In this document: in pieces, positions 48,724 through 61,893 of the stretch
How positions within the stretch are numbered: position 1 is the first letter of the stretch
How the letters are laid out: every line of letters begins with the position of its first letter
Assembly (NCBI GenBank): GCA_040389905.1
Contig: JAZJZK010000053.1
Span: 1-64,000, forward strand
Direction: 5' to 3'
Source: Gemmatimonadota bacterium
GTDB lineage: Bacteria > Gemmatimonadota > Gemmatimonadetes > Gemmatimonadales > Gemmatimonadaceae
DNA length: 64,000 nucleotides
Notes under the pieces: generated by a model
The model's database searches: none
Seen by the model: only the letters and a program-made list of their open reading frames with translations
Told to the model about the DNA's origin: nothing
Program-made: the position numbers and the translations under genes

Positions 48724-49272
48724 TCAGCGGCCCGTTTGCACCGGCGCGCGGGCGGACTCGCTCAACAGCCGCTCGACCTCGGTGCGCAACGCCTCCTCGG
48801 CAAAGATGCCAGTCACCCGTTTCACGATCTTTCCGTTGCGGTCGATGAGGATCGAGACGGGAAGCGCCCACACGCCGCCGAAGGACTCGACCAGTTCTTC
48901 CGCCCCGACGATGATGGGGTACCTGATCGCATGTTCGCGCAGGAAGTCGTACATGGCGAATGGATCCGTGTCGTTCGTCCAGATGCCCAGTACGACGAAT
49001 CCCTGGTCCTTCTTCGCGTGATAGACGCGGTCGAAGGCCGGCATTTCGGTGACGCACGGACCGCACCAGCTCGCCCAGAAGTTCACGAGGACGACCTTCC
49101 CGAGTGCACTGTCGCGCGTGATCGGGACTTCATCGAGCGTCTTGACCGCAAAGGCGGGCATCTCGTCGCCGACGCTCCCGCCACGCAATACGTCAAGTTG
49201 CGGCGATAGCCGATATGTGAAGAACGCGACCGCCAACCCCAGGCCGATGAACTTCCAGGTGCGATCTCTCAA
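48724..49272 (-). CDS. TlpA/ResA-family thiol-disulfide oxidoreductase (TTG start inferred)
   Basis: 'GKVVLVNFWASWCGPCVTEMP', 'LPVSILIDRNG'; N-terminal TM. Confidence 0.9.
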   Translation of the reverse strand: MRDRTWKFIGLGLAVAFFTYRLSPQLDVLRGGSVGDEMPAFAVKTLDEVPITRDSALGKVVLVNFWASWCGPCVTEMPAFDRVYHAKKDQGFVVLGIWTNDTDPFAMYDFLREHAIRYPIIVGAEELVESFGGVWALPVSILIDRNGKIVKRVTGIFAEEALRTEVERLLSESARAPVQTGR

Positions 49273-49292
49273 TGCATGAGCCTCGGGACGTT

Positions 49293-49381
49293 CGCTCGTT
49301 TTGTCGCCCTGAGCGAAGCGAAGGGGCTGCACCTCAACCCAGACTGAAGGTGCAGATCCCTCGACTTCGCTCGGGGTGACA
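49293..49381. repeat. REP-like palindromic element
   Basis: TGTCGCCCTGAGCGAAGCGAAGGGGCTGCAC...GTGCAGATCCCTCGACTTCGCTCGGGGTGACA. Confidence 0.9.
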
Positions 49382-49395
49382 GCCACATCTCGAGT

Positions 49396-50244
49396 TCAGA
49401 TGCTGTGAGCTCGCTGACCGCGCAACGACGCAAAGGTGCTGACGAGTGCCAGCAACACACCGCAAGCGACCACGATTGCCGCGCCCGTGGGCAGGTCGAA
49501 CTTGTACGACGCCCACAAGCCACCGAGACTCGCCGTCGCCGCAATGCACCAACCCACGACGAGGCGCGACGTCCACGTGCGCGCGAGCATCACCGCACAG
49601 ACAGCAGGTACGATGAGGTAGGCGAAGGTCAGCAGCACGCCCGCAATGCGGACGAACGACACGACGACCAGCGCAAATGCCGCGTAGAACAGGAAGTCCC
49701 AGACCATCACCATCATCCCGGAGCCGTGCGCCGCCTTGAAATTCTCCGAGATGAGGGCGAAGCGCTTGTGGAACACCGCGTAAAACGCGCCGAGCGCCAC
49801 GAATGTGGCCGCGCGCTTCATGACGTCTTCGACCGTGACGTTGAGAATGTCGCCCGTCAGCAAGTGCTCGAGCTCTTCCTTGCCGCCGGCGACTCGGCTG
49901 AGCAACAGAATGACGGCCGCCGCGGCAACGACGAACGTGATGCCGATGATCGCCTCCTGCGGGACCTCATGCTGCTCGATGCTGCGAGACCAACTGAAGA
50001 GACCCGCGGCGAGGAACGTGACGACAAGGGAGATCCAGAACGTCGCCATGTCGCCGAACTGGAAGCCCATGATGAGCGCGATGCATGTGCCGAGCGTCGC
50101 GACTTGTGCGAGCGCGAGGTCAACGAAGATCACTTCGCGTTTCACAACATGAAGGCCGAGGTAGACGAGTAGGGGCGGAAGAATCAGGCAGGCGGCGAGC
50201 GGCCACTTCATGACCGCCCACGCGATGGCGAATTCGCTACTCAT
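49396..50244 (-). CDS. Metal ABC transporter permease (ZnuB/ABC-3 family)
   Basis: 'GLHVVKREVIFVDLALAQ', 'EAIIGI', 'GVLLTFAYLIVPA', 'DLPTGAAIV'. Confidence 0.9.
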   Translation of the reverse strand: MSSEFAIAWAVMKWPLAACLILPPLLVYLGLHVVKREVIFVDLALAQVATLGTCIALIMGFQFGDMATFWISLVVTFLAAGLFSWSRSIEQHEVPQEAIIGITFVVAAAAVILLLSRVAGGKEELEHLLTGDILNVTVEDVMKRAATFVALGAFYAVFHKRFALISENFKAAHGSGMMVMVWDFLFYAAFALVVVSFVRIAGVLLTFAYLIVPAVCAVMLARTWTSRLVVGWCIAATASLGGLWASYKFDLPTGAAIVVACGVLLALVSTFASLRGQRAHSI

Positions 50245-51170
50245 TTCTTGGCCTGGAGTGCGGTGGTGACCGAGTGCACGAGCATATCCATCATCTCGAC
50301 GTAGGTATCCGTTCCCTTGATTGCGCCGGGTTGCTGCGACACGTCGACGACGACACCGCTGGCCTCGAGCGCGACCTTCTCAGCCGTCTTTCTGTTCTGG
50401 TAGGGCTGGACGAGAATCACGTGCGCATTTTGCGCGCGCATCGTTCCGATGACCTTTGCCTGGTGCGCCGGCGACGGTGCAATGCCCGGCTTCGGCTCCA
50501 GCGTTTCCACTACGTCGAGCTTGAAGCGCTCGCCGAAGTAGATGAAATCGTTGTGGTAGGTCACGATCTTCGCGCCAGCGTACGGCGCGAGGAGCTTCTG
50601 CCATTCGGTGGTCTTCGCATCCACCGCGGCATTGAACTTCGCCAGATTGGCCTTGAACGTTGCCGCATCGGCAGGATCGACTTGCGTGAAATGCGCCGCA
50701 ATATTGGCCGCAACGATCTTGGCGTCCATGGGGTCGATGAGGAAATGCGGATTGCCGAGGGCGTGGACATCGCCGCGCGAGCGATCGAGCGTCGTCGGCA
50801 CTTCGAGCATCCGGATGCCCGCCGAGGCCAGAACCAGACCGGGTGCACCGGCGGCGAGGCGGTCATTACGCGCACTCTCGAGCAGCGGCGGAAGCCATCC
50901 GATCTCCAGCTCGGCTCCGCCCTCGATCAGCACATCTGCGCGATTGAGCGTGACGATGTGACTCGGTTTCGCATCGACGAAGTGCGGATCTTCCGAGGGC
51001 TTCGCGAGCGTCTTCACATCGACGGCGTCGCCACCGATCTCGCGCGCGAGTGCCCCGAGATCCGGTGTCGTCGTCACGACGTTGAGCTTCTTTGCTGCCG
51101 GCGGCGTCACCACGCTCGAAAGCACGAGAGCGGCCGTAACCGCGAGACGCGGTAGAATCATGAGACTCAT
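50241..51170 (-). CDS. Metal-binding protein, ZnuA/TroA (cluster A-I) family
   Basis: 'VVTTTPDL', 'EDPHF', 'DVHALGNPHF', 'TYH', 'EPKPGIAPS'. Confidence 0.93.
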   Translation of the reverse strand: MSLMILPRLAVTAALVLSSVVTPPAAKKLNVVTTTPDLGALAREIGGDAVDVKTLAKPSEDPHFVDAKPSHIVTLNRADVLIEGGAELEIGWLPPLLESARNDRLAAGAPGLVLASAGIRMLEVPTTLDRSRGDVHALGNPHFLIDPMDAKIVAANIAAHFTQVDPADAATFKANLAKFNAAVDAKTTEWQKLLAPYAGAKIVTYHNDFIYFGERFKLDVVETLEPKPGIAPSPAHQAKVIGTMRAQNAHVILVQPYQNRKTAEKVALEASGVVVDVSQQPGAIKGTDTYVEMMDMLVHSVTTALQAKK

Positions 51171-51182
51171 TTCTTGTTACTC

Positions 51183-52520
51183 CTAGAATTTGTGCGCCGC
51201 ATGGGCGCCCATCATGAATTCGAATTGAAGCCAGAGCGAATGCTCAGTGCCCAGCCCCGCTCGGCGATCGACGTTGTATTGCAGACGAAGCTTGGAGAAC
51301 TCGGACGGATACCACGTCAGATTCGGTGATACGCGCTCTCTGTTCGTGCGGAGTTCGGACTCGAATGACGCCGCGCTGTTTCGCGTAACGTCGCCGCGAA
51401 GTCCCAGGATCACTCGTGGTCTGATACCCCAGAGCAGCTGGGAATAGCCACCCCAATCGCTGAGTGTTTCTGCGCGGAGCGTCGCGCCCGCATCGTCCAG
51501 GGCGACTCGATCCGCGGCACCGTACCGCCGCGAAATCAGTTCAGTCTGCCACGCCACGAACGGGAAGCCTGCCTGCGCGGCCTCGGCCTTCCACTTGTAA
51601 TAGGCATCCACACCATAGATCGACGTCCGCGCGCTCGACCCGGAGTTGTTCGGCCCGAACCCTGCCGATGCGCCGAGCACGATGGTCTGTGTCTCGGTGA
51701 GATCGAGTGAGGTGGTGAGGCGCGGAACGATGAGCAGATCTGTGAGGCTTCCGACCTCGCGATCGACTGGCACGCCGCCGTGTATCTCGCCCGACTCCTC
51801 GGAGCGGAAGCTCGACGTCGTTCCGCCCGCGCTGTTGAGGACGGAGACCATCGCTTCAGTATAGATGTCCGTTGGCAGGAGCCACGACAGTTTTGCGCCT
51901 TGTCCCCGCAGCCCATCGGACCCGAACATCTGATTGAGGACGAGCGGCTGGTCGACGAACGCCCATGCGTGCGGATGCTGCGCATTCTGCCGACCGAAAT
52001 CCGTCAGCATCTGGCCTGCTTTTGCCTGAAGATTCCACGGGAGTGATGTCGTCTGCGCCCATGCCTCCTCGAGCTCGACGCCTGTTTCGCCATTCTTGTC
52101 GAGCTTGTAGACCAGCGCGCTGAAGCCCTTGAAGTACGGGTCCACGGCGCCGTCGAAGGTTAGCTCGACATTCGGGACCGTGAAGCCGCGAACGAGCGGG
52201 TCGTGATCGCCGCGAAGGAGGGAGCCAACGTTGGGCGTTGACGACCATCCGAAATCGGAAAGCGCGTCGAAGCCCATGTTCATATAGGCGCCCCCGGCGC
52301 GCTGTGGCGTGGCGGGCGCCGGGGCTTCCGCAGGTCCGGCGCGGAGAAGGCTGTCGAGCTTTTCCTGCTGTGCCTTGACGGCGGCAGTGAGAGAATCGAG
52401 TGTGCGCTGCTGTCGGCGCGCAGTCGTATCGGATGCCTGCTGGGCAGCGAGCGGAACGCTCGCGCAGCCACAGGCAATCATGACCGCGACGAATGTCGCG
52501 GTCCTGTGAAGCCGGTTCAT
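51183..52520 (-). CDS. Outer-membrane beta-barrel / porin with an N-terminal coiled coil and His motifs
   Basis: Signal peptide, coiled coil, 'ELEEAW', 'NAQHPHAW', 'SEFSKLRLQY', C-terminal 'GAHAAHKF'. Confidence 0.82.
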   Translation of the reverse strand: MNRLHRTATFVAVMIACGCASVPLAAQQASDTTARRQQRTLDSLTAAVKAQQEKLDSLLRAGPAEAPAPATPQRAGGAYMNMGFDALSDFGWSSTPNVGSLLRGDHDPLVRGFTVPNVELTFDGAVDPYFKGFSALVYKLDKNGETGVELEEAWAQTTSLPWNLQAKAGQMLTDFGRQNAQHPHAWAFVDQPLVLNQMFGSDGLRGQGAKLSWLLPTDIYTEAMVSVLNSAGGTTSSFRSEESGEIHGGVPVDREVGSLTDLLIVPRLTTSLDLTETQTIVLGASAGFGPNNSGSSARTSIYGVDAYYKWKAEAAQAGFPFVAWQTELISRRYGAADRVALDDAGATLRAETLSDWGGYSQLLWGIRPRVILGLRGDVTRNSAASFESELRTNRERVSPNLTWYPSEFSKLRLQYNVDRRAGLGTEHSLWLQFEFMMGAHAAHKF

Positions 52521-52602
52521 GTGTGATTTGTCTCGAATGATGGCTCACCGGCGAGAGGAGTCCCGCCGAGCGTTTGTGAGCGCGCTCGGCGCTCACGGTC
52601 CG
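52521..52602 (-). promoter_or_regulatory. Intercistronic region with mutually exclusive hairpins (attenuator-like)
   Basis: Minus strand GTGAGCG/CGCTCAC plus CGGCGGGA/TCTCGCCG versus the overlapping CGCCGAGCG/CGCTCGGCG stem. Confidence 0.55.
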
Positions 52603-52950
52603 TCAGACGAGCTGGTCTGGGGGGGCCCTGGAGAGGTAGCCATGTCCGCGCAACGACTCGGTGCTGGGCGCGGAGAACTCCGCGAGCCCGCCGGTGAGGC
52701 GGCGCGGAACCTCGAGCGGATCCGCTGAGGTGCCGACCATCAGCACGCTGAGGTACTGGCAGACGACGCAGTCGGCCGAATGTGGCGGCCGGCAGGCGGT
52801 GCGCGACTCGTCCTCGACGTGCGAATACGCATTGCGGCGGTCGATCGCATCCACGGCGTCGCTCACGCTCAACGTCGCCGGCAGCGCGAATTGCACTGCA
52901 GCGAAGAAGACCGTGAGGAAGCGGGTCCAGCGACTCGGCCGAATCATCAA
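52603..52950 (-). CDS. DUF2946/CruR-like leader protein with CxxC and a C-terminal RAPP motif
   Basis: Hydrophobic N-terminus, 'HVE...CRPPHSADCVVC', ends 'SRAPPDQLV'; directly upstream of metal-uptake genes. Confidence 0.8.
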   Translation of the reverse strand: MMIRPSRWTRFLTVFFAAVQFALPATLSVSDAVDAIDRRNAYSHVEDESRTACRPPHSADCVVCQYLSVLMVGTSADPLEVPRRLTGGLAEFSAPSTESLRGHGYLSRAPPDQLV

Positions 52951-52993
52951 ATGGAAGCCTATATGGTCGTAGGGCCGGAGGCAAATGTGATCA

Positions 52994-53992
52994 TCAGGGA
53001 ATGACGCGGCCTCCCATCGCGGCGGAATCCATCTCGCGGGCCATCATGAGCCAATCGTCGCGGGAGACCACCAAGGTCGCGTCGTCCTGGTACTGATGGA
53101 GCGCGACCAGAAGCGCTGCCCGCTTGCGCGCCGGCGGCACGGCGGGCGAGGCGAGAATATCACCCACGACGTCGTGCAGTGCGTGGAGGTTGTCGAACAC
53201 GGCCGCCGCATCGGGATAGCGCTGCGTGAATCGTTCGGCGATCGCCGGCGACAACGGCATGGTGGACGGCACACGGCCATGCGAAAGCGCGAGGGTCCAG
53301 AACGCATCCACACTGCGCTGGACGAGCGTGTCTCGCGTGGTACCGGCTGGTGCGGCGAGCAGCGCCTCGTACAGGCTCATTTGCAACCAATGGTATGACC
53401 AGATCAATGCGTTGTACGCGGGTGCTGCCCGTCGCAGTGAGAGCGAGAAAGGTTGTCCCTCCATCAATGCCATGTTCTTGGGCTTGCTGCTCAGCGCGAG
53501 ATCTGGCCGCGAGCGATAGTAGCGCATCACGTCAGCAACACGCGCGTCGCGTTGGCTGTCCGCAATCCGGGCGTCGGACAATACATCGTACAGTTGGCGA
53601 TGCAGCATGTGCGCCCACTCGAATGCCTCGACAAGCTCGGGCGCAGTCGTCGCGTATCGCGGAGCAATGGCGTGCTCGTCGAGCGTGACGGACGACGGAT
53701 GACGGAGCACCCGTGTTGTCACCAGTGTGTAGAGCACCGTGTCGACGTCGTGTGTCAAGGTTCCGGGATGACGCAGTTCTCGCTCATACAGCGCCGCATG
53801 ACCAAAGTCGAAGGCGTTGAAGAGCGCATCGACGCGCGGGTACTGTCCGCGGAATGCGTAGTTGTGCGACGCGCGAAGGTAGGTCTGCTCGTACGCGACG
53901 GGATGGCAACTGGCGGTTGTCGCGCTGACGATCAACCCGACCAGCATACGGCGTCGTCGGCACGCAGGATCAGCGCGCGAGGCTGAACGCAA
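52994..53992 (-). CDS. Hypothetical exported helical protein with duplicated His motifs (start uncertain)
   Basis: Possible TASC lipobox; 'FDFGHAALYE', 'WAHMLHRQLYD', 'YHWLQMSLYE', 'NLHALHDVVGD'. Confidence 0.75.
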   Translation of the reverse strand: MRSASRADPACRRRRMLVGLIVSATTASCHPVAYEQTYLRASHNYAFRGQYPRVDALFNAFDFGHAALYERELRHPGTLTHDVDTVLYTLVTTRVLRHPSSVTLDEHAIAPRYATTAPELVEAFEWAHMLHRQLYDVLSDARIADSQRDARVADVMRYYRSRPDLALSSKPKNMALMEGQPFSLSLRRAAPAYNALIWSYHWLQMSLYEALLAAPAGTTRDTLVQRSVDAFWTLALSHGRVPSTMPLSPAIAERFTQRYPDAAAVFDNLHALHDVVGDILASPAVPPARKRAALLVALHQYQDDATLVVSRDDWLMMAREMDSAAMGGRVIP

Positions 53993-54962
53993 ACGTCCCT
54001 CCGACGGTGAATGCCGTGGATTGAATCGCGCCGGCGAACTTGCGGGAGACTCCCGCGTCGAGCACCACGCGCGGGCTCAACTGGTGCCTCGCGCCCACCT
54101 CGGCAGTGAGATCCGTGACCGCATAGAGCCCCACGAAGCGGTCCGCGACCACGTCCACGGCGATCTGTGTGCTCGAGAGTGCGAACGCGTGATCCGTTCC
54201 AATTGCCGCGGACCAACGCATACCATCGGAACGCGGAGCTTCCGCGGCAGTCTGATTGGCGGACGGCCCGAGACAGACGCTGGAGCGTGCGATGGGAAAG
54301 CGCGCAACAGACAGCGAGTCGAGCTTGATGACGTCGCACGGTATGTCGGGGATTAAAGGCCCCCCGCAGCTTGGCGTGTCAACAGGGCTGAATCGACTGG
54401 CAATGCAGACCTCCGGGGGTGGAGTCGCGCGAACAGACCAGGTGCCGATCCCTGCATTGAGATGGACGCGGGCGACGGGAAGGGTCTTCGTCGCGGCGGC
54501 GAAGGCAGAATACGTCGAGCGCGGCGAGGCAAGGGATCCGGTCGCCAGCAGGATTTCGGTCCCCAGCGCAACGGCCGGTTTGCGAGACGTTTCCTGCCCG
54601 AATGCGTGCAACCCACTCACGGCTACACCGGCGACTCCGGACGTGCGCTCACCCGACCCGGGCGGCGGCACGACATACAGAACCGGCACGCGAATCGCCA
54701 ATTCGGTAAACGGCGCGACGCCGTATGTCACCTCGGGATCGACTCGCCAACGCGTGACGCCGCTTCCGAACCGCTCCCCTCGAATCGCGGGCAACTCCAG
54801 GTCGAGTGATCGTCGTGCTGTCACGAGGGCATCCTGGGTGCGCACCGGACGTCCGCCATCGGAGTTCAGATACCCCGTTTGTGCGACCGCACAGGGCGAC
54901 CAAACGACCGCCAGAAAGAGCACCGAGGTGCCGATCCGGTTCGGAGCGCGCACCGGATTCAC
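53970..54962 (-). CDS. Hypothetical outer-membrane beta-barrel protein with a four-Cys insertion
   Basis: Signal peptide, alternating strand pattern, C-terminal 'VGGTFAF'; 4-nt overlap with the lytTR gene. Confidence 0.7.
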   Translation of the reverse strand: MNPVRAPNRIGTSVLFLAVVWSPCAVAQTGYLNSDGGRPVRTQDALVTARRSLDLELPAIRGERFGSGVTRWRVDPEVTYGVAPFTELAIRVPVLYVVPPPGSGERTSGVAGVAVSGLHAFGQETSRKPAVALGTEILLATGSLASPRSTYSAFAAATKTLPVARVHLNAGIGTWSVRATPPPEVCIASRFSPVDTPSCGGPLIPDIPCDVIKLDSLSVARFPIARSSVCLGPSANQTAAEAPRSDGMRWSAAIGTDHAFALSSTQIAVDVVADRFVGLYAVTDLTAEVGARHQLSPRVVLDAGVSRKFAGAIQSTAFTVGGTFAFSLAR

Positions 54963-58805: not shown

Positions 58806-58886
58806 ATACCAGTGGTTGGTCAGAAACCCCCACTCATTGGAATGCGCGCACGATGCCCGTGTGGCCCGTTCATACTTGGCGGAGTG

Positions 58887-61262
58887 ATGAATCTCATAGT
58901 GGTGCGCGCGCGTCGTTGGTGGAGTTGTGGGGTCGCCCTTGTGCTCCTTCTCGTGGCAGCCGCGTCAGGCGCACGCGCGCAGGACGTAGCAACAGGCGCT
59001 CGGCTCACGCGTGAGATCACGGGCGTGGTGAGCGACTCGGCGACTCGGCTTCCCGTGTCCAATGTGGCGGTAACCGTGGACGGCACCCGCATCGCCGCGC
59101 TCACGGACTCGGTCGGCCATTACCATATAGCGGGCGCAATGCCGGCCGTCGTATCGCTGCGCTTTCGCCGGCTGGGTTTCGCCTTCGCGGTAAAGCGGGC
59201 TGACGTCAGCCGCGGGACGGTGTTGCTCGACGTCGTACTTGCGGCGCGAGCGACAACGCTGTCAGGAGTAACGGTGAAGGCAGATTCCGTCGCGGAGTTT
59301 CTGCGCGCGGAGCAGGCGACGTCCGTCATGACCGCTGAGTTGATCAAGGAACGGCGCGGGCAGACGCTCGGCGAAACGATTCGCGAGTTACCCGGCGTTT
59401 CAATCATTCAGTACGGGCCGAGCATCGCGAAGCCGGTCGTGCGCGGCTTGCATTCGCAGCGAATCGCCACGGTGAATGATGGCGTGCCGCAGGAAGGCCA
59501 GCAGTGGGGTGGGGAACACGCTCCCGAAATCGACGCCTTTGCCGCGAATCAGATCGAGGTGATCCGCGGTCCCGGCACCATCCTGTATGGATCGGGGGCT
59601 CTCGGCGGCGTCGTCCGAGTCACGCCACGTCCGCTGCCTACGGAGGGCGGACTCAGCGGAGAGCTGTCGCTGAATGGCTTTGCCAATAATCGGCAAGGCG
59701 CCACGTCGCTCATGCTCGAGGGCGCGAATGTCCACCTGCCTGTCGTTGGAACGACCGGCTGGCGCGCACAGGTCACCGCGCGCCGCGCAGGTGATGCTCG
59801 GTCACCGAACTACTATTTGCCAAATACGGGATACGAGGAGCTGGACGCGAGCGGTGCGCTCGGTGTGACGCGCGAATGGGGTACCTCACAAGTCGCATAT
59901 AGCCTGTTCAGTACCGACCTTGGACTATACGTCGGCGCCCACGTCGGCAATCTCGACGATCTCACGCGGGCGATGGAGACGCCGTTCACGTCGCCGATGT
60001 TCTCGTATGCGATAGCTCGGCCGGATCAGAAGGTGAGGCACGACCTCGTGTCCTGGCGCACGACGCTGGACCTGCCGAAGAGTAGCCGGCTCGAAGTGTC
60101 CTACGGATTCCAGCACAACGATCGCCAGGAATTCGACAATCATGGCTTCGCGGTCGGTGCGCGGCCCGCCTTCGAGCTCGAGCTCTACACGCACTCTCTC
60201 GACATCCAGTATCACCATCCACCCGCCGGATCGTTCACCGGGACCGTCGGTGTCTCGGGCATGCGGCAGGGCAATCTTTCGCCGGGCCGCTCGTTCCTCA
60301 TCCCGCAGTATCGCATCTACGCCGGCGGTATCTTCGCGCTCGAAGGATACACGCGTTCGCGTCTCACACTCACGGCGGGCGCACGCTTCGACGACCGGTA
60401 CCAGCATGCATATCAATACGGTGCACCGGTCGTCGTCAGTCCCGATGATGCGCGCTCGTACGCGGGGCCGTCCGGATCGCTCGGCCTTTCATACAAGGTC
60501 ACCGACGCCTGGTCCGTGGCGAGTACGTTGTCGCGCTCGTGGCGCCCGCCGAACGTCAATGAGCGCTTCAGCCAGGGCGTGCATCACGGCACGGCGCAGT
60601 ACGAGATCGGAGACTCGTCGTTGGTCGGCGAACGCGCATACAACGCGGATCTTACGCTGCGTCATCTCGGCGAGCATTCACGGTTCGAACTGAGCACGTA
60701 CCGCAACCAGATCGACGACTTCATTTATCTCCTGCCGCGCGAGCCGGTGGCTACCGTGCGCGGTATCTATCCCGCGTACAGCTACGCGCAGACAGATGCG
60801 CTGTTGCGTGGCGTGGAAATCAGCGGACAGCTCGATCCATTCTCGTGGTTGACGCTGACGGCCAGCGGAAACCTGCTGCGCGGCACGGAGCGGCGAACCG
60901 GGAATGCCCTCTACGACATGCCCGCTGATCGTGCCACGCTGTCGGCCCGCATCACACGTTGGAACTCCATGCGCGTAAGCGGCGGCTATGTCGAACTTGG
61001 CAGCACGCTCGTGCGGCGCCAGAGCAATGTGCCGCCCGTGACGATCTACAAGCTGCCGACGAGTGGCTATGCACTGCTGAATGCGCAGATCGGCGCCGCG
61101 TCGCTCCACGTCTTCGGCGTGACGATGGAGCCGAGTCTGTCTGTACGAAATCTGCTGGACGTGGCGTATCGCGACTATCTCAGCCGCTATCGCCTCTTCG
61201 TCGATGAGCCGGGGCGTGATGTCGTGCTCCGGATCACGGTGCCCTTTGGTGGGGCGAAATGA
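58887..61262 (+). CDS. TonB-dependent receptor with a CarboxypepD_reg N-domain, probably for metal uptake
   Basis: Plug 'KPVVRGL..QQWGGEHAPEID..IEVIRGPGTILYGSGALGG'; 'GVHHGT'; C-terminal 'NLLD..YR..PGR'. Confidence 0.93.
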   Translation: MNLIVVRARRWWSCGVALVLLLVAAASGARAQDVATGARLTREITGVVSDSATRLPVSNVAVTVDGTRIAALTDSVGHYHIAGAMPAVVSLRFRRLGFAFAVKRADVSRGTVLLDVVLAARATTLSGVTVKADSVAEFLRAEQATSVMTAELIKERRGQTLGETIRELPGVSIIQYGPSIAKPVVRGLHSQRIATVNDGVPQEGQQWGGEHAPEIDAFAANQIEVIRGPGTILYGSGALGGVVRVTPRPLPTEGGLSGELSLNGFANNRQGATSLMLEGANVHLPVVGTTGWRAQVTARRAGDARSPNYYLPNTGYEELDASGALGVTREWGTSQVAYSLFSTDLGLYVGAHVGNLDDLTRAMETPFTSPMFSYAIARPDQKVRHDLVSWRTTLDLPKSSRLEVSYGFQHNDRQEFDNHGFAVGARPAFELELYTHSLDIQYHHPPAGSFTGTVGVSGMRQGNLSPGRSFLIPQYRIYAGGIFALEGYTRSRLTLTAGARFDDRYQHAYQYGAPVVVSPDDARSYAGPSGSLGLSYKVTDAWSVASTLSRSWRPPNVNERFSQGVHHGTAQYEIGDSSLVGERAYNADLTLRHLGEHSRFELSTYRNQIDDFIYLLPREPVATVRGIYPAYSYAQTDALLRGVEISGQLDPFSWLTLTASGNLLRGTERRTGNALYDMPADRATLSARITRWNSMRVSGGYVELGSTLVRRQSNVPPVTIYKLPTSGYALLNAQIGAASLHVFGVTMEPSLSVRNLLDVAYRDYLSRYRLFVDEPGRDVVLRITVPFGGAK

Positions 61263-61302
61263 GTTCCAGTCTGGAAACCTCAACTTCACACAGGTGTTCG
61301 TC

Positions 61303-61893
61303 ATGACAATGTCACGGTCCACTCTTACGGGATTCCTCGTCTCCGGCCTCGTGCTCCTCGGTGCGTGTGGCGACGATCCGACGGCACCGATCGAGGGTGG
61401 CGGCGATCCGGAGAACATCGCTCGGGTCACGGTCACACTGACACCGGTCGGCGGAGGCACCGCCGTCACCTCAGTGCGCGTCGATCCCGACGGCACGTCA
61501 CTGCCGAAGCCCGTCAATGTGGCGGTGGGCACTCTCGCGCTGACGAAAGGCAAGACGTACAACGGCACGATCGAGCTGTTGAATGATCTGGATCCGAAGG
61601 ACATCGTGGACATCAGCGACGAAGTGCAGAAGGAAGCAAACTTCCACCGTTTCTTCTACACACTCACGTGCAGTGGGGTGAACGTGCCTGTGTCCAGCCT
61701 CGATCTCGACACACAGGTTCCGGGACAGCCACTCGGCTTGAAGTTCCAGGTCGTGGTGGACGGCACAGCGGCTTCGTCGACCAATTGCTCGCTGCATGTC
61801 GAGCTGCATCACTTCGAATCCGCGAAGGGCAATGGACTTGGTTCGACGTTCGACACGGATCTCTCACTCGACTTCCCCGTCACCATCTCGTAA
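61303..61893 (+). CDS. Surface lipoprotein accompanying the TonB-dependent receptor
   Basis: LGAC lipobox; 'EVQKEANFHRFFY', 'VELHH', 'DTDLSLDFPV'. Confidence 0.8.
   Translation: MTMSRSTLTGFLVSGLVLLGACGDDPTAPIEGGGDPENIARVTVTLTPVGGGTAVTSVRVDPDGTSLPKPVNVAVGTLALTKGKTYNGTIELLNDLDPKDIVDISDEVQKEANFHRFFYTLTCSGVNVPVSSLDLDTQVPGQPLGLKFQVVVDGTAASSTNCSLHVELHHFESAKGNGLGSTFDTDLSLDFPVTIS

Follow-up and report, generated by a model that had tools for sequence, protein, structure and literature searches.

How could a genome in which no Fur-family gene is detected control its only ZnuA-type uptake operon? The question is raised by a locus of a Gemmatimonadota bacterium (Gemmatimonadaceae; assembly GCA_040389905.1, contig JAZJZK010000053.1, positions 1 to 64,000; this whole 64,000-nt stretch is called the window). 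On its minus strand, a short ORF precedes genes for an outer-membrane barrel, a solute-binding protein and a permease. The search for Fur-family proteins gave no match in this genome (85% complete) or in its congeners G029, G094 and G142 (96-97% complete), and one DtxR-family match was recorded in the genome of the window. We consider it somewhat better than an even bet that the ORF is a leader that stalls its own ribosome and keeps the porin-ZnuA-ZnuB operon on when metal, most likely zinc, is scarce. That the ORF is an arrest-type regulatory leader at all appears highly probable.

The leader gene and its downstream operon

The minus-strand ORF 52603-52950 encodes 115 aa when read from a TTG at 52950. 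The features listed for it in the initial annotation are all in the sequence, namely a hydrophobic N-terminus, a Cys/His cluster (H44-x8-C53-x3-H57-x3-C61xxC64 in 115-aa numbering) and R108-A-P-P111, after which come four sense codons and TGA. A gap of 82 nt separates the leader from the porin ATG at 52520. In the AlphaFold2 model, the N-terminal helix is followed by a short helix beginning at CxxC and by a disordered linker. The coordinates of all features are collected in Table 1.

A TAGGCT hexamer had been described as a -10-like element 5 nt before the start. The hexamer does lie 5 nt before the TTG, but the start is more likely the ATG at 52947, 8 nt away, which gives a protein of 114 aa. 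This preference follows from the three closest relatives, in which the hexamer also lies 8 nt before an ATG and the TTG position holds no start codon; the TTG start is disfavoured on the same ground. A consensus promoter scan at the leader scored 0 promoters, the hexamers falling below its threshold. Genome-wide, TAnnnT is most frequent 5-7 nt upstream of ATG; among 1251 first-in-run ORFs, 105 have it at spacers 6-9 and 17 at 16-19. Most tabulated leaders from several phyla, judged without a formal count, show TAnnnT a few bases 5' of the start and almost none an SD. Given the hexamer just before the start, the near absence of an SD and the genome-wide peak, the leader transcript is likely leaderless or nearly so. 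Leaderless-type starts are common in this genome.

The barrel gave no match to Pfam or NCBIfam, including no Pfam barrel or plug, and it carries an invariant HPH and a C-terminal H-x-x-H. Its nearest clusters bear the automatic name 'zinc-regulated TonB-dependent receptor'. TonB-dependent receptors are 22-stranded barrels with a plug domain. As the structure model has about 16 strands and the plug is absent, 'porin' seems the better name and is used here. The porin is homologous to a copy in Vibrio campbellii (E=1e-15), and the closest porins among named records share 72-77% identity. The solute-binding protein is the sole PF01297 match in the genome. Its best matches are AztC, with which three His align, and Synechocystis ZnuA; its best solved relatives include zinc-uptake proteins, and Mn/Fe binders rank lower.

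The operon of the window contains no ATPase gene. An ATPase motif lies just downstream of the cassette in 5 of 68 loci (L060, L065, L066, L074 and L090), many of the loci being incomplete. Directly behind ZnuB, a TlpA/ResA-like thioredoxin gene (48724-49386, minus strand) is probably outside the cassette, as no relative of it appears among the tblastn matches listed. Upstream of the leader, 52994-54962 (minus strand) encodes two secreted proteins without a family match. One of them, of 332 aa, repeats His motifs (FDFGHA, WAHMLH, WSYHWL and FDNLHALHD), suggesting a helical metal-binding fold, and a LytS/LytTR pair is located further upstream. A ZnuD-like TonB-dependent receptor and a lipoprotein (58812-61893, plus strand) resemble those behind leaders in L230, L232 and L254. 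A leader was looked for before this receptor and none was seen; a HEAT-repeat gene precedes it.

Table 1. Features of the leader and its operon (positions in the window).
Feature	Position	Strand	Basis
Probable -35 hexamer TTGCCT, 17 nt from the -10	52979..52984	-	sequence; TTGCYT-17-TAnnnT-8-ATG in three closest relatives
Probable -10 hexamer TAGGCT, 8 nt before ATG 52947 (5 nt before TTG), no SD	52956..52961	-	sequence; three closest relatives
Leader gene, probable divergent DUF2946/CruR-type arrest leader, 114 aa from ATG 52947 (115 from TTG)	52603..52947	-	sequence, PF11162 search, alignment
N-terminal hydrophobic helix, residues 6-38 (114-aa form), predicted signal or membrane anchor	52834..52932	-	AlphaFold2
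Predicted metal site H-x8-C-x3-H-x3-CxxC, three-Cys subtype	52759..52821	-	alignment, subtype table
ATGGCT (within H-G-Y codons), pairs with AGCCAT 52540-52545; weak outer stem ending near porin RBS	52638..52643	-	folding, about 30% occupancy
Putative RAPP arrest motif, 43 residues past CxxC	52618..52629	-	sequence and CruR precedent
Hairpin 1 (GTGAGCGC/GCGCTCAC), pairing probability 0.995	52576..52596	-	folding
Competing stem of the initial annotation (CGCCGAGCG/CGCTCGGCG), 9 bp, probably incidental	52564..52591	-	folding
Hairpin 2 (CGGCGGGA/TCTCGCCG)	52549..52568	-	folding
Outer-membrane barrel ('porin'), 445 aa, about 16 predicted strands, no plug	51183..52520	-	structure model, homology
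ZnuA/AztC-type solute-binding protein, three aligned His	50241..51170	-	NCBIfam (best AztC), alignment
ABC-3 permease, ZnuB/AztB-type	49396..50244	-	family match

Conservation of the leader and its RNA

A direct single-sequence search with the leader returned only itself, so loci were gathered through the porin, which has a match in 57 of the 151 genomes of the family. The close set comprised the 19 closest loci, one of which was dropped for having no upstream DNA. A leader lies ahead of the porin in all 18 others, with 42-44 residues from CxxC to RAPP and five different codons for the Arg of RAPP. Stop-to-stop frames with RAPP at most 15 residues from the stop and CxxC 35-55 residues upstream number three in the 5.08-Mb genome, the leader being one. 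With only three such frames in this genome, and such a frame before the porin in 18/18 close loci, the leader ORF is not a chance occurrence. The leader is also present in 7 of 10 distant loci of the same family and in 41 of 54 metagenome loci (strict pattern). A further set held 68 named GTDB loci, four of which were excluded as lacking upstream DNA; a RAPP/RGPP leader occurs in 57 of the remaining 64 (5 of the 57 duplicate earlier loci), and among the other seven, one ends in HGPP, one is without the motif and five are without a leader. Leader-porin loci span Gemmatimonadota, Aquificota, Geobacter relatives, Nitrospirota, Planctomycetota, Verrucomicrobiota, Oligoflexia, Thiobacillus and Rhodocyclaceae. 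A leader profile matches 131 of the 151 family genomes; four genomes (G007, G033, G034 and G134) were counted solely in the family-genome tallies of porin, Fur-family and profile matches. The loci are mutually related, and their counts are not independent trials.

Pairwise identity among 26 aligned leaders is 17-38%. A hydrophobic N-terminal segment is present in all 26, and the invariant residues are His56, Cys60, Cys63, Arg107, Pro109 and Pro110 (114-aa numbering; the RAPP columns were selected for). The initial annotation had tied its reading to conservation of both motifs in orthologues; CxxC is found in 102 of 109 leaders and lies 43-45 residues from RAPP in 97 of those 102. His runs take the place of Cys in many distant leaders. 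A linker of fixed length and free sequence is what an exit-tunnel tether would predict. The suggested HMM comparison with DUF2946 (PF11162) gave a weak match to the window leader (E=0.037), although its 15.2 bits fall under the gathering cut-off of 23.7. The same model matches 23 of the 26 aligned family leaders at E<=1 (best 3.4e-5), and its cut-off is passed by 2 of 18 distant leaders. From its sequence, the leader would be a divergent arrest leader of the DUF2946/CruR type and not a formal PF11162 member. It is a real, widespread gene with, probably, a regulatory role, and the conservation and fixed spacing support the earlier proposal that a CruR-related arrest leader heads the porin/ZnuA/ZnuB operon.

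Several variants were observed among the loci. The leaders of L054 and L056 have two RAPP motifs nine residues apart, the second at the canonical spacing of 44. Leader-like ORFs before the porin in L057, L168, L173 and L266 end in the variants HGPP, RPPP or HAPP. An extra small gene lies between leader and porin in L071, L073, L077 and L080.

The RNA feature conserved in the family is predicted pairing of the next ribosome-binding site (RBS) with the RAPP codons or with those immediately flanking them. It was evaluated at 74 loci with hand-chosen start codons (L011 and L064 were left out, their start codons being unclear); these loci are kin, and the counts are not independent. A ribosome footprint at RAPP cuts the RBS opening cost by 2 kcal/mol or more in 53 of the 74 loci; the same drop is seen in 5 of 74 when the footprint is placed upstream, and in 13 of 92 ordinary gene pairs from this genome. 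A drop of at least 5 kcal/mol occurs in 31 of 74 loci versus 4 of 92 ordinary pairs. The median opening cost moves from 10.7 to 6.0 kcal/mol with the RAPP footprint and is 10.5 with the upstream one. At p<=0.05, the native tail pairs with its own RBS better than synonymous recodings do in 23/74 loci, and it beats upstream windows in 29/74 and foreign RBSs in 16/74. In L070-L073, L077 and L080 (Aquificota) and in L084 and L088 (Geobacter-like), the complement of the next Shine-Dalgarno, 9-16 bp long, is formed by the Ala-Pro-Pro codons of RAPP.

At the locus of the window, the 82-nt spacer and its two hairpins are as first described. Both hairpins belong to the minimum-energy fold of the spacer (z -2.7) and recur at the same positions, with different sequence, in L031, L032 and L035. 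The initial annotation also proposed that a competing stem acts as a switch. The 9-bp complementarity exists, but as a switch the stem was rejected: in the folding model it lies 3.7 kcal/mol above the minimum (P about 0.003) and out of reach of a RAPP-stalled ribosome. The idea that a ribosome at the stop codon flips it was likewise discarded, since RBS access stayed the same in the model. A counterpart was sought by eye in L031, L032 and L035 and none was seen. The competing stem is probably incidental.

The ATGGCT element forms a weak outer stem here, whereas pre-RAPP codons next to its position pair with the RBS at about 100% in L032 and L035. No occlusion is predicted for the porin RBS of the window, whose opening cost is 4.0 versus 3.6 kcal/mol in the comparison with and without a ribosome (open both ways) and stays at 2.5-4.1 kcal/mol across every footprint tried. 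The comparison of the native leader tail with synonymous recodings gave p=0.17. The closest relative, L031, is likewise without predicted occlusion, whereas strong occlusion is predicted in L032 and L035. A DNA pattern for the 82-nt spacer subfamily found no match in metagenomes, so covariation at this locus rests on the three relatives. No intrinsic terminator was found.

Zinc as the probable ligand and the possible direction of the response

We favour zinc as the main ligand with moderate confidence. The initial annotation had suggested zinc or another non-copper metal, and zinc is the best supported, by indirect evidence: the exchange of leaders with Zur boxes, the link to ZrgD and the AztC and ZnuA matches of the binding protein. 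The omr-znuAII-znuBII operon of V. parahaemolyticus is reported to rise 283-1034-fold in zinc limitation (PMC9817125), and a V. campbellii cluster named in the same paper was aligned as its stand-in. The V. campbellii porin cassette (L265) has no leader and two Zur-type boxes, and two further leader-free gammaproteobacterial cassettes have perfect Zur boxes. Among the 109 leader loci, no Zur-type box within three mismatches was found, the motif being applicable to just 8 proteobacterial ones. The Zur motif used resembles Caulobacter sites. Sister leaders head ZnuD-like receptors and a ZneA-like pump.

The link to ZrgD comes from DUF2607 (PF10795). This family is ZrgD, described as a hypothetical protein in the text consulted of PMC9817125 and PMC9820375. 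The window leader has no PF10795 match at E<=1, and two of 18 distant leaders match weakly. In 301 Gammaproteobacteria, DUF2607 has two matches (one above cut-off), both of them RAPP leaders with the same porin behind them. In 301 genomes from a different order (that of G340) it has 15 (L269-L283), every one with a helix, a His cluster and a Cys exactly 44 residues before RAPP (5) or RSPP (10). RSPP is partly permissive for arrest. A Zur-type box lies ahead of all 15 genes, ZrgA comes next in the five cases checked, and the footprint opens the next RBS in 9 of 14 loci. Judging by these shared features, ZrgD is probably an unrecognised arrest leader.

Two stricter rules were tried and abandoned. 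The leader does not replace Fur/Zur genes as a rule: a Fur-family match occurs in 98 of the 151 family genomes, including many that have porin and leader. Nor are leader and Zur box mutually exclusive, as the ZrgD loci carry both. In G060 (L232:1-2055), a leader and a Fur-family gene are near neighbours, the latter about 800 nt upstream.

The system is not specific to this lineage, which the initial annotation had not foreseen: it occurs across several phyla. Nor had it foreseen that a sister clade heads efflux pumps. In 40 hand-picked loci, 46 non-porin leaders were collected, nine of which were not folded. CzcCBA-type (TolC-MFP-CzcA) efflux operons follow 19 of the 46, six assigned by NCBIfam and the rest by eye from the gene pattern, and one of the pumps is closest to ZneA. 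Among the folded non-porin leaders, eight precede ZnuD-like receptors and nine other TonB receptors. A DUF2946 gene is described at the head of the Caulobacter czrCBA operon (PMC4176598), and non-copper members (Ni/Co) were proposed by Ozturk et al., whose neighbour lists include efflux and TonB genes. A quick tree of 80 leaders, built on few columns, separates a 47-row clade that contains the window leader and no efflux operons from a clade of 33 rows, among which are all 17 efflux rows together with 13 from porin loci. The tree and the subtype table show 17 of the 19 efflux rows; the three-Cys site precedes none of the 19 pumps (17 in the subtype table).

The RAPP footprint opens the RBS in 16 of the 19 efflux loci and closes it in three, which rejects the notion that the stall generally closes the RBS in efflux operons. 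In the efflux leaders of L221:700-900 (plus strand) and L222 (minus strand), a ribosome at RAPP raises the next-RBS opening cost by 10-11 kcal/mol. Because efflux-clade leaders are also found ahead of 13 porin cassettes, a single polarity would not fit every leader. Either the clades answer metal oppositely, in the manner of CruR and CutF, or the name given to one of the operon types does not match its function. A porin-ZnuAB cassette (L009) and a TolC-MFP-CzcA operon in a congener (L226) have near-identical leaders, spacers and signal-peptide starts, suggesting that the control module was swapped between operons. For the clade of the window leader, we think it probable that metal releases the stall.

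Mechanism, alternatives and known systems

The His/Cys cluster at a fixed distance from a known stalling motif leads us to the reading that the ribosome itself likely senses the metal, probably zinc, where related operons use a zinc repressor protein. The probably leaderless mRNA would load a ribosome, which would stall once the two prolines occupy the P and A sites, as in CruR, and the 43-residue linker would set the cluster just outside the exit tunnel. Binding of Zn2+ would fold the cluster and pull the chain free, so that the stall would end at sufficient zinc and the operon would turn off. While stalled, the ribosome would cover codons otherwise paired with the porin RBS. Such pairing is predicted to be strong in most of the family and weak here, where the output may depend, in part or entirely, on CruR-like Rho termination. 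In an engineered construct, Zn-driven folding is reported to release SecM arrest with a peak at 24-26 residues, not 43 (PMC4571824).

For the output at this locus, masking of the RBS is a possibility put just short of even, and Rho is entertained more tentatively. The full CruR mechanism, in which the stalled ribosome would shield a C-rich rut site and release by metal would lead to Rho termination among the intercistronic hairpins, is rather unlikely. It would agree with the lack of predicted RBS masking here, with a C-over-G excess that is highest around RAPP (0.15-0.17) and still about 0.1 across the spacer, with third positions of the last 30 leader codons that are 64% C and 27% G (22 codons), with the presence of a rho gene and with the failure to find an intrinsic terminator. 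However, when the codons before RAPP are compared with the next gene, their third-position C bias is the higher one in only 26/45 and 15/25 porin loci, the spacer is highly structured and most relatives have a clear RBS-masking stem. The polarity of the response could also be reversed, as in CutF, such that metal on the exported nascent chain prolongs the stall, the operon is on and the cassette serves metal excess or loading. The Zn-type efflux pumps behind sister leaders with the same stall-opens-RBS geometry, the near-identical leaders of L226 and L009, the absence of an ATPase from most cassettes and the conserved hydrophobic helix speak for this version, which we nevertheless regard as improbable: zinc limitation induces the Vibrio operon of the same name, Zur boxes are found at leader-free copies, and the window leader belongs to the clade without efflux operons and to the three-Cys subtype seen before no pump.

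Copper or another metal (Ni, Co or Mn) could be the ligand instead, or the site could read thiol redox or secretion state. Both characterised relatives, CruR and CutF, sense copper, a Cys3His2 site suits Cu(I) coordination, cluster A-I binding proteins also carry Mn and Fe, and a TlpA/ResA-like gene follows ZnuB here. Against this, no copper chaperone or OprC-type gene is annotated in the 38 downstream proteins scanned, the best labels are ZnuA/AztC, ZnuD-like, ZneA-like and ZrgA, and Cys is replaced by His runs in many distant members, so that a ligand other than zinc is judged unlikely. Finally, the ORF could encode a small metal-binding envelope protein (a chaperone or buffer) in which RAPP has no regulatory role. 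No RNA switch is predicted at this locus, and a zrgD single knockout is reported to have no growth effect in zinc chelator (PMC9820375), but loss of a leader would not have to affect growth. The linker keeps its length but not its sequence and is predicted to be disordered, RAPP is strongly avoided in ordinary proteins, and the gene opens operons for several unrelated types of transporter; these points make the envelope-protein explanation very improbable.

According to Roy et al., neither Cu nor Zn has a known riboswitch. In the literature searched, copper is the only metal for which a responsive arrest leader has been demonstrated, and a search for a zinc-responsive one in open literature (subscription papers and several supplements being outside its scope) found none; a zinc-responsive version, if true, would fill this gap. 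The leaders and their downstream genes already appear as pairs in published source tables, without a zinc interpretation in the parts consulted, and the main text of PMC12992588 contains no mention of zinc, DUF2796, DUF2946, stem-loop, Shine-Dalgarno or leaderless. If true, the proposal would also explain how a genome without a detectable Fur/Zur-family gene could control its only ZnuA, and it would give a function to a leader present in 131/151 family genomes and to the orphan family DUF2607. The pair of uptake and efflux leaders offers a test of one stalling motif wired to opposite outputs. A broader extrapolation, a cross-phylum ribosome-based zinc regulon, is put forward as speculation. 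Here a zinc-finger-like nascent chain would stand in for Zur and would explain zrgD, arrest codons would hide the RBS, and two clades would have opposite outputs, shutting uptake or opening efflux.

Among known systems, CruR (Bp2923) of Bordetella pertussis is described as the first gene of a metal-import operon, with an export signal, a poorly structured chain and CxxC about 45 residues before a C-terminal RAPP (43 here), and its stall is predicted to keep uptake on (PMC9426467). CruR arrests at RAPP in vitro (PMC12992588), and its control requires CxxC and the correct spacing: the CxxC-RAPP distance is 45, and five added residues impair control (PMC9426467). The window leader differs in having an extra His and a third Cys, in preceding porin/ZnuA/ZnuB genes and no copper-linked gene rather than a copper TonB receptor, and in being probably leaderless, whereas CruR has a 45-nt leader; the output of the family looks like RBS masking, that of CruR is Rho termination (PMC9426467). 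CutF of Rhodobacter capsulatus (PMC9973294, bioRxiv 10.1101/2025.02.05.636593) is likewise a leader whose product is exported, binds metal and stalls at prolines. Its stem-loop masks the next Shine-Dalgarno; such masking is predicted in 53/74 loci of our family and not here. Unlike the CxxC and RAPP of the window system, which heads an uptake operon, CutF has CxxxC and PPP, senses periplasmic copper and is switched on by metal (PMC9973294). In our family, the predicted masking strand overlaps the arrest codons or adjoins them.

SecM, MifM and ApdA/ApdP share the opening of an SD-masking stem by a stalled ribosome and release by pulling force, and RAPP is common to ApdA/ApdP, which are RAPP-type monitoring substrates, and to the window leader (PMC10987492, PMC12992588). 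They precede sec/yidC genes, monitor protein export and have no metal cluster, whereas metal transporters lie downstream here. Two further parallels come from Vibrionaceae (PMC9817125). The omr-znuAII-znuBII operon has the same three genes in the same order, a homologous barrel and no ATPase, and its V. campbellii copy carries two Zur-type boxes and no RAPP leader. ZrgD, encoded by the first gene of the Zur-regulated zrg operon, has one Cys instead of CxxC and coexists with a Zur box. It nonetheless resembles the window leader in its length of about 100 aa, its single hydrophobic helix, its His cluster, its position at the head of a zinc-uptake operon and the distance from Cys to RAPP/RSPP, which is 44 residues in ZrgD and 43 in the window leader.
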